Below are positions 46,844 through 46,866 of a DNA stretch of 64,000 nt, piece after piece. Numbering within the stretch: the first letter of the stretch is position 1; every line of letters begins with the position of its first letter. Source of the stretch: Escherichia coli. Its GTDB lineage: Bacteria; Pseudomonadota; Gammaproteobacteria; Enterobacterales; Enterobacteriaceae. A model generated the notes under the pieces. It ran no database searches, was not told where the DNA came from, and was given only the letters and a program-made list of their open reading frames with translations. The DNA lies in NCBI RefSeq assembly GCF_024298765.1, contig NZ_CP101210.1; one strand, given 5' to 3'. Both the position numbers and the translations under genes were made by a program.

Positions 46844-46866
46844 ATATGGACAATAGTTGTCCATAT
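46844..46866. promoter_or_regulatory. Perfect 10-3-10 inverted repeat, candidate operator upstream of helicase-nuclease gene
   Basis: ATATGGACAA-TAG-TTGTCCATAT, about 55 bp upstream of ATG at 46920. Confidence 0.4.

Follow-up and report, generated by a model that had tools for sequence, protein, structure and literature searches.

A perfect palindrome upstream of the anti-phage gene mkoC in Escherichia coli appears to lie on a promoter and to have gained its symmetry recently

The 64-kb stretch of Escherichia coli DNA analyzed here, called the window throughout, carries an island integrated at a tRNA-Phe gene, in which an integrase gene is followed by a 451-nt spacer and then by mkoC, the gene of a single-gene anti-phage system. 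The palindrome under study lies in the spacer. The main features of this region, in order, are:

44933..45008, plus strand: tRNA-Phe (GAA), the integration site of the island, identified with ARAGORN.
45206..46468, plus strand: P4-type tyrosine integrase of the tRNA-Phe island, identified from its Pfam domains (Arm-DNA-bind_3, Phage_int_M and Phage_integrase) and the RefSeq annotation.
46470..46500, no strand assigned: GC-rich, terminator-like 13-bp hairpin that immediately follows the stop codon of the integrase gene, found by a scan and a palindrome search.
46844..46866, no strand assigned: perfect 10-3-10 palindrome ATATGGACAA-TAG-TTGTCCATAT, read directly from the sequence.
46920..50435, plus strand: mkoC, a type II Mokosh single-gene anti-phage system of 1171 aa, identified with PADLOC and Pfam.

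The gene downstream of the palindrome is mkoC, and its product combines an SF1B/Upf1-like helicase and a C-terminal PLD nuclease in one polypeptide. The PADLOC MkoC model PDLC03924 matched the open reading frame with E=0 and 1694 bits, residues 1-1169 corresponding to profile positions 1-1135 of 1136. Pfam placed AAA_11 at residues 272-492, AAA_12 at 777-969 and PLDc_2 at 1028-1138, and the closest solved helicases were Upf1, DNA2 and SEN1. This arrangement, a COG1112/Upf1-like SF1 helicase and then a PLD-family nuclease, is the one by which type II Mokosh is defined in the preprint of Millman et al. 2022. In other Mokosh representatives, phage resistance was found to need both the helicase ATP site and the PLD active site (Millman et al. 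preprint). Little is known about the expression of single-gene defense systems such as type II Mokosh: no Mokosh promoter, start site or regulator was reported in the literature searched, and Millman et al. 2022 describe no promoter or regulation for type II Mokosh. Downstream of mkoC (50544-52965), the minus strand encodes an EptA-like phosphoethanolamine transferase of 499 aa and an outer-membrane beta-barrel protein of 246 aa, and in strain EC-10 truncated copies of the phosphoethanolamine transferase gene lie on either side of mkoC.

At the other end of the spacer, the hairpin at 46470-46500 was flagged on the minus strand by the scan, with the T-run read on that strand. Because it is a perfect palindrome, the same hairpin is also present on the plus strand of the integrase gene, where a ATTTTTCTTT stretch lies about 10 nt past the stem, and it probably ends transcription of this gene. 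The sole open reading frame in the spacer (46568-46831, minus strand, 87 aa) matched no family in Pfam, PADLOC or NCBIfam, which agrees with the earlier observation that no regulator gene is evident nearby. This reading frame was considered as a hidden regulator and rejected, since it has no family and is frameshifted in the form of the locus that is linked to an HNH endonuclease gene (the HNH-linked form, described below), and mkoC has no conserved neighbor.

The sequence at 46844-46866 is exactly the perfect 10-3-10 palindrome that had been described in the original prediction. It ends 53 nt before the ATG at 46920 (about 55 bp had been predicted), and GC content across the 300 nt around it is 38%, so that the description of an AT-rich intergenic setting also held. 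The arms end at 10 nt, where A at 46843 stands opposite G at 46867 and allows no extension, and no second copy of the palindrome was found in the window, even with up to three mismatches. The number of palindromes to be expected was estimated from 100 first-order Markov simulations of the window: five centers with perfect 10-nt arms and a loop of 0-10 nt were observed, against 0.69 ± 0.82 simulated. Four of the five were GC-rich hairpins of the type found after genes, and the palindrome at 46844-46866 was the sole AT-rich one. A perfect inverted repeat somewhere in 64 kb is therefore no surprise and only mildly beyond chance, and the occurrence of such a palindrome in a 451-nt intergenic region just 5' of a gene is mildly unexpected (about 0.005, post hoc). 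Further perfect GC-rich palindromes in the window include AAACGGACCTCCACGGAGGTCCGTTT (45018-45043, directly 3' of tRNA-Phe) and AAGGCACGTCAGATGACGTGCCTT (40694-40717), both of which look like terminator hairpins. The T at 46866, which completes the tenth pair of the palindrome under study, also creates an 8-bp palindrome, CCATATGG, with an NdeI site inside (46861-46868), and a direct repeat of ATATGG at 46844 and 46864, spaced 20 bp.

The element containing the palindrome was found with a 35-nt probe in 880 of 5426 complete E. coli genomes, once per mkoC copy: it occupied one place per genome and at most two, which matches the mkoC copy number, and was found on no plasmid. More than 700 complete E. 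coli genomes have the arrangement of integrase and mkoC seen in the window. About 145 nt 5' of the ATG, palindrome included, accompany mkoC in four contexts (P4-type integrases at pheU, pheV and leuX; selC; and an unrelated HNH endonuclease gene pair). Strains C10 and C11 retain the integrase and, as far as 46842-44, the spacer, after which their cargo is different; the C10-type junction was present in 6 of the 5426 E. coli genomes. Judged by this distribution, the element is linked to mkoC and not to the integrase, and belongs to the mkoC control region. Its placement upstream of a helicase-nuclease gene, as first noted, is thus one that moves with mkoC across the four island contexts, and the left half of the palindrome is invariant, at a fixed distance from the start codon, in all Enterobacterales relatives examined. 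No mkoC relatives were found in viral contigs.

In the six genomes with the C10-type junction, the cargo in place of mkoC consists of an ArsR-family regulator gene and an oxidoreductase gene (strain C10 locus 6340-6345). In the HNH-linked islands, mkoC is preceded by the HNH endonuclease gene and a gene for a 125-aa protein (loci 4593-5818 and 1-1176), of which the first 69 residues are RNase HI-like (NCBIfam PRK00203, E=1e-10, below the cutoff). A restriction endonuclease gene follows mkoC in these islands, Mrr-type in the Salmonella and Citrobacter loci, and in the E. coli HNH-linked loci a TIR-domain gene comes after it. The HNH-linked mkoC island is a defense island.

The breakpoint in C10 and C11 bears on another explanation, that the palindrome is a recombination or module junction at which island cargo is exchanged. 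The homology of both strains with the window extends no further than the left edge of the palindrome, and at 46847 the HNH-linked form abruptly becomes less divergent. However, the C10-type junction, in its six genomes, amounts to one event, breakpoints were also found at other places (query positions 200, 142 and 275), and the step in divergence coincides with the place where a variable promoter spacer meets a conserved -10 hexamer. No recombinase-type repeats or duplicated copies were found flanking mkoC, and a role as a junction is considered very unlikely.

To compare the element across relatives, an alignment of 13 sequences was used; they come from nine Enterobacterales lineages, and the lowest mkoC protein identity among them is 62%. 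The parts of the control region distinguished in this alignment are:

46826..46831, plus strand: predicted -35 hexamer TTGCAT, of which TTGC is invariant, from the alignment and a weight scan.
46847..46854, plus strand: invariant box TGGACAAT, the inner left arm, which holds the predicted -10 hexamer.
46849..46854, plus strand: predicted -10 hexamer GACAAT, with -11A and -7T, inside the box.
46857..46866, plus strand: right arm TTGTCCATAT, over the predicted transcription start and variable among relatives.
46867..46919, plus strand: putative conserved 5' UTR, 98% identical to Citrobacter koseri.

The two arms of the palindrome differed in their conservation. The box TGGACAAT was identical in all 13 sequences, as well as in a second alignment (A5), and occurs once per locus, 66-73 nt before the mkoC ATG. 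The right arm was found as TTATCCAT, TTAACCAT, TTAGCCAT, TTTGCCAT, TTAATCAT, TGAATCAT and TTAATTAT, and became more degenerate in more distant relatives. Between the window and C. koseri, identity was 100% in the box, 83% in the loop and right arm, 67% in the promoter spacer and 92-94% in the mkoC coding sequence. Five of the seven core pairs of the dyad (TGG..AA / TT..CCA) were complementary in at least 9 of the 13 sequences, the central pairs 46850:46860 and 46851:46859 in five and two, and the two outer pairs in six each. There were no compensatory changes in the dyad among the aligned sequences, and every change was one-sided.

Four variants of the palindrome are of particular relevance:

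Window: ATATGGACAA-TAG-TTGTCCATAT, with 10 of 10 complementary pairs.
Strains BH100N and EC-10: ending in TTGTCCATAC, with 9 of 10 pairs.
CFT073 type: TAG-CTGTCCATAC, with 8 of 10 pairs, in a band of about 375 of the 880 genomes.
HNH-linked: ACGTGGACAA-TAG-TTATCCATAC, with 6 of 10 Watson-Crick pairs and one G:T pair.

The perfect form was present in 132 of the 880 E. coli genomes that carry the element (15%, with a 30-nt probe). The CFT073 type, which has lost the innermost pair, is the commonest E. coli sublineage. The HNH-linked sequence is present in many E. coli, and was identical in C. koseri, C. freundii, Citrobacter sp. NCU1, Enterobacter hormaechei, Salmonella enterica and one lineage whose protein identity is 89%. 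In the outgroup UBA7338, at 72% protein identity, the sequence was ACGTGGACAA-TGT-TTATCCATCG, and the combination ACGTGG...TTATCCAT was common to Citrobacter, Enterobacter, Salmonella, the lineage at 89% identity and UBA7338. Since the imperfect form is common to these lineages and to the outgroup, the imperfect dyad is ancestral and has been stable, and the perfect form is derived.

The ancestral dyad would accordingly have been ACGTGGACAA-TAG-TTATCCATAC, from which the integrase-linked E. coli lineage may have reached the perfect form by substitutions at 46845-46, at 46859 and lastly at 46866. Each of the four derived changes (46845, 46846, 46859 and 46866) creates a Watson-Crick pair, and the locus thus has what characterizes a corrected quasipalindrome, an imperfect ancestor in which all derived changes raised complementarity. 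In E. coli, template switching is known to improve the symmetry of imperfect inverted repeats (PMC7202029, PMC5941160), a process described as quasipalindrome correction (Ripley 1982; Dutra and Lovett 2006, as cited in PMC7202029). The symmetry could have been perfected by drift or by replication template switching on the quasipalindrome, the latter without need of a function. Two of the four changes lie in a spacer that is generally diverged, and the other two are single transitions in a very conserved stretch. Because the two spacer positions are in a region that has diverged anyway, ordinary substitution is an adequate alternative to template switching, and the route is one on which drift or selection is equally compatible with the data. 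Taken together with the promoter described next, the comparison tilts toward a perfect symmetry that arose recently, in one E. coli sublineage, and that is not itself the functional unit.

The invariant blocks upstream of mkoC are TTGC (46826-29) and TGGACAAT (46847-54), separated by a variable spacer of 16-17 nt, followed by the AT of a conserved CAT (46862-64), of which the C is nearly invariant. The first two blocks resemble the hexamers of a sigma-70 promoter, with TTGCAT and GACAAT 17 nt apart in the window and 16 nt apart in most other lineages, and with the -11A and -7T that are expected of a sigma-70 promoter with hexamers 16-18 nt apart. A position-weight scan, for which approximate textbook frequencies were used in the matrix, ranked TTGCAT/17/GACAAT top or joint-top in the window (score 7.7) and in UBA7338, and placed this pairing in the top three for 5 of the 12 sequences scanned. 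It was the only promoter candidate with an invariant -11A, -7T and -35 TTG. The candidate promoter would be weak, as the hexamers match 7 of 12 consensus positions and fall below the threshold of a stricter consensus scan. Two rival architectures, one with TGGACA as the -35 hexamer and a -10 that varies, the other with TTTATA as the -35 and TTTCAT as the -10, scored similarly in some lineages, but neither has a conserved -10.

The predicted promoter would account for the unequal conservation of the two arms. The left arm would be invariant as the box TGGACAAT supplies the -10 hexamer GACAAT, and the right arm would lie over the discriminator and start point, at the conserved CAT, and be free to drift. 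Transcription would start at a pyrimidine-purine step at about 46861-63 and give a 5' UTR of about 57 nt, followed by an AGGA ribosome-binding site and the ATG at 46920. Which hexamers RNA polymerase uses and where it starts are inferred from the alignment and the scan. In the preprint of Millman et al., Mokosh systems cloned with their native intergenic regions gave defense in E. coli K-12, and these clones, which may carry another ortholog than this mkoC, would fit a self-sufficient promoter of the host type. On balance, the palindrome seems somewhat better explained as sitting on the core sigma-70 promoter of mkoC, with a symmetry that is young and specific to one lineage, than in any other way.

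The position of the predicted start also bears on whether the inverted repeat acts as a hairpin, that is, as an RNA stem-loop that ends or attenuates read-through from the integrase gene and so insulates mkoC, or as a DNA cruciform. The consensus scan listed the palindrome as terminator-like, with a 10-bp stem followed by GGTGGTTTTA, and the RNA of the window form folds at -11.2 kcal/mol (z = -2.7). An intrinsic terminator would have a stable GC-rich stem that is conserved and is followed immediately by a U-run, whereas here 3 of the 10 stem pairs are G-C, the U-run begins 5 nt past the stem, and the ancestral, widespread form folds at only -4.3 kcal/mol (z = +0.8). In addition, a strong hairpin is already present after the integrase gene at 46470-46500, the dyad has no compensatory changes, Rfam gave no match, and a start at 46861-63 would leave the left arm out of the mkoC transcript. 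A hairpin function is hardly credible on these data.

The region downstream of the palindrome, which would form the 5' UTR if the sigma-70 promoter is correctly placed, was well conserved. Its 98% identity to C. koseri exceeds that of the coding sequence, which indicates that the leader is under stronger constraint than the protein. The conserved blocks were TTTATA (46873-78, mostly invariant) and AAYCAA-N4-TT (46886-97), the latter present in all Enterobacterales relatives in the alignment, and the ribosome-binding site, with an AGGA Shine-Dalgarno sequence at 46910-13, and the start ATGGA were invariant in the 13 sequences. The block AATCAATGGATTT (46886-46898) fits the IHF core consensus, which is taken here to be WATCAANNNNTTR, except for the last base, and is a putative site. 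The putative 5' UTR of the window (46861-46930) was predicted to form a long hairpin (-19.5 kcal/mol, z = -3.4) in which the CCAU of the right arm pairs with the AUGG of the start codon and the Shine-Dalgarno sequence is buried. A similar fold was found in UBA7338 and not in the other relatives, RNAalifold predicted no common structure for the 5' UTR, and an RNA element was rejected since Rfam had no match and the hairpin was not common to distant relatives. A mini-ORF from the ATG at 46846 (21 codons, ending in a TAG at 46909-11 over the ribosome-binding site) was also rejected: it is 4-6 codons long in most distant relatives and has no ribosome-binding site. The box, as RTGGACAAT, resembles the 5' end of mkoC itself in relatives (ATGGACAG; ATGGACAAA in Ruegeria).

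The original prediction had read the palindrome as having the geometry of an operator for a dimeric repressor. Its symmetry and its position over the best promoter candidate are in keeping with this; the symmetry is not conserved, and no regulator was found. On the operator reading, a dimeric protein bound to TGGACAA-N3-TTGTCCA would block RNA polymerase at -10/+1 and keep the potentially toxic MkoC low until a signal such as infection. The regulator would be encoded in the core genome or elsewhere in the island, or would be MkoC itself, and the perfect form in the lineage of the window would be a tighter operator. The 10-3-10 palindrome falls within the length of about 14-24 bp expected of an operator dyad, and it spans the predicted -10 GACAAT and +1, the classical position of a repressor site. 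A partial dyad, TGG..AA-N3-TT..CCA, persists in most lineages, as would also be seen with a degenerate operator, and across the 13-sequence alignment the dyad paired 73% of cells in register, against 30-51% when slid. All four derived substitutions raise symmetry, so selection for the dyad is possible. Furthermore, the invariance of non-consensus bases (TG, G-12 and C-10 of TGGACAAT, and the C of TTGC) exceeds what sigma-70 would need and hints at further constraint, for which a bound factor could be responsible.

However, both half-sites of an operator are expected to be conserved in orthologous control regions, and here the right half-site was far less conserved than the left, which is unexpected for a symmetric dimer; the changes were not compensatory, and a pair is broken in the E. 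coli sublineage with the most genomes. No linked or co-inherited regulator emerged, as no ORF family was common to the flanks of the ten mkoC loci compared. If MkoC were its own regulator, a DNA-binding region might be sought in its N-terminal part, but the first 270-275 aa had no Pfam domain and no match to a DNA-binding family, and the AlphaFold model of the N-terminal 275 aa or so was of low confidence (pLDDT 58). The activity of Mokosh clones with native promoters in K-12 also counts against a dedicated repressor. The search for further copies, as a regulon would predict and as had been proposed as a check, went against the operator: in a search that covered near-identical copies, no second one was found in the 5426 E. 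coli genomes, in phages or in plasmids. These results weaken the operator reading without refuting it, since many real operators are imperfect, and it is regarded as possible but unlikely.

Several more specific candidates were considered. BLAST of the palindrome against phages and plasmids returned only Salmonella mkoC fragments and weak matches in Clostridioides and Lactococcus. A scan of viral contigs for a phage copy gave one match, in IMG/VR contig IMGVR_UViG_3300029237_000155, in which 22 nt (860-881) including the TAG center are identical; the match lies within a 320-aa ORF with an N-terminus, LYILGNGFDLAH, that is presumably AbiH-like, and in this unrelated context it was treated as a chance match. 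A sigma-54 reading of TGGACA...TTGT, made by eye, was rejected since the spacing is one base off, GT stands in place of GC and the right arm is unconserved. Compared by eye, the palindrome matched none of the consensus sequences of LexA (CTG-N10-CAG), CRP, FNR and Fur, and its resemblances to DnaA, RutR, IclR and GlpR-like consensus sequences do not appear to fit in orientation or spacing.

The distant mkoC clade (62-68% protein identity) had a dyad of its own, TGCGA-N6-TCGCA, over the -35 hexamer and spacer. It lies about 95-75 nt before the mkoC ATG (alignment columns 17-35; the window equivalent is 46826-46844). Its arms are conserved and its center is variable, and one pair is changed from G:C to A:T on both sides in the clade of the window. 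By these features TGCGA-N6-TCGCA would resemble an operator more closely than the palindrome under study does, and its presence suggests that mkoC promoters may commonly be regulated, which is a point in favor of an operator. A more general form of regulation was also considered, in which RTGGACAAT and a partner half-site bind a factor found throughout the Enterobacterales, either a core-genome regulator or the N-terminal 270 or so aa of MkoC, that sets or induces the expression of Mokosh II. This reading is considered distinctly improbable. If it were true, tighter control would have evolved in the E. coli lineage whose palindrome is perfect, and transcriptional control of a Mokosh system would have been described for the first time, here without a linked regulator gene.

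Overall, the evidence favors an ordinary promoter with a young palindrome over a dedicated operator, and this known defense gene is preceded by a known kind of promoter or, at most, of operator. Perfect symmetry can be a recent condition, confined to one lineage, of a repeat that is older and imperfect, and alone it is therefore no evidence of an operator. The compact module that accompanies mkoC across islands and genera spans about 100 nt and comprises the -35 TTGC, the box TGGACAAT and the conserved 5' UTR, and its boundaries are directly usable for cloning or studying type II Mokosh. If the dyad does bind a protein, a mobile defense gene would be controllable by a host factor without a regulator of its own.

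The mkoC control region can be compared with several known systems. Like the sigma-70 promoters of other horizontally acquired defense genes, which have a weak -35 TTGnnn and a non-consensus -10 with -11A and -7T, it has conserved blocks 16-17 nt apart with a free spacer, an A-rich tract upstream and a predicted start, at a pyrimidine-purine step, 7-9 nt after the -10 hexamer. Its 8-nt box is more invariant than sigma-70 alone would need, and its hexamers match the consensus at only 7 of 12 positions. LexA boxes and lac O1 are repressor operators that overlap -10/+1, and the palindrome resembles them as a dyad of about 20 bp across the predicted -10 and start, but one of its half-sites is better conserved than the other and the search found no regulon copies. 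Regulators of the BrxR/CapW type, with WYL or HTH domains, bind inverted repeats upstream of their own defense operon. The inverted repeat before the anti-phage gene mkoC is similar in position, but in BrxR/CapW systems the regulator is encoded beside the repeat, and mkoC has no conserved neighbor in any context. As in quasipalindrome correction, an ancestral imperfect repeat was perfected by changes that restored pairs; unlike simple correction, the changes fall in both arms and would have taken at least two or three steps. The protein itself matches type II Mokosh (Millman et al. 2022) without difference, and the upstream anatomy described here is additional to that description.
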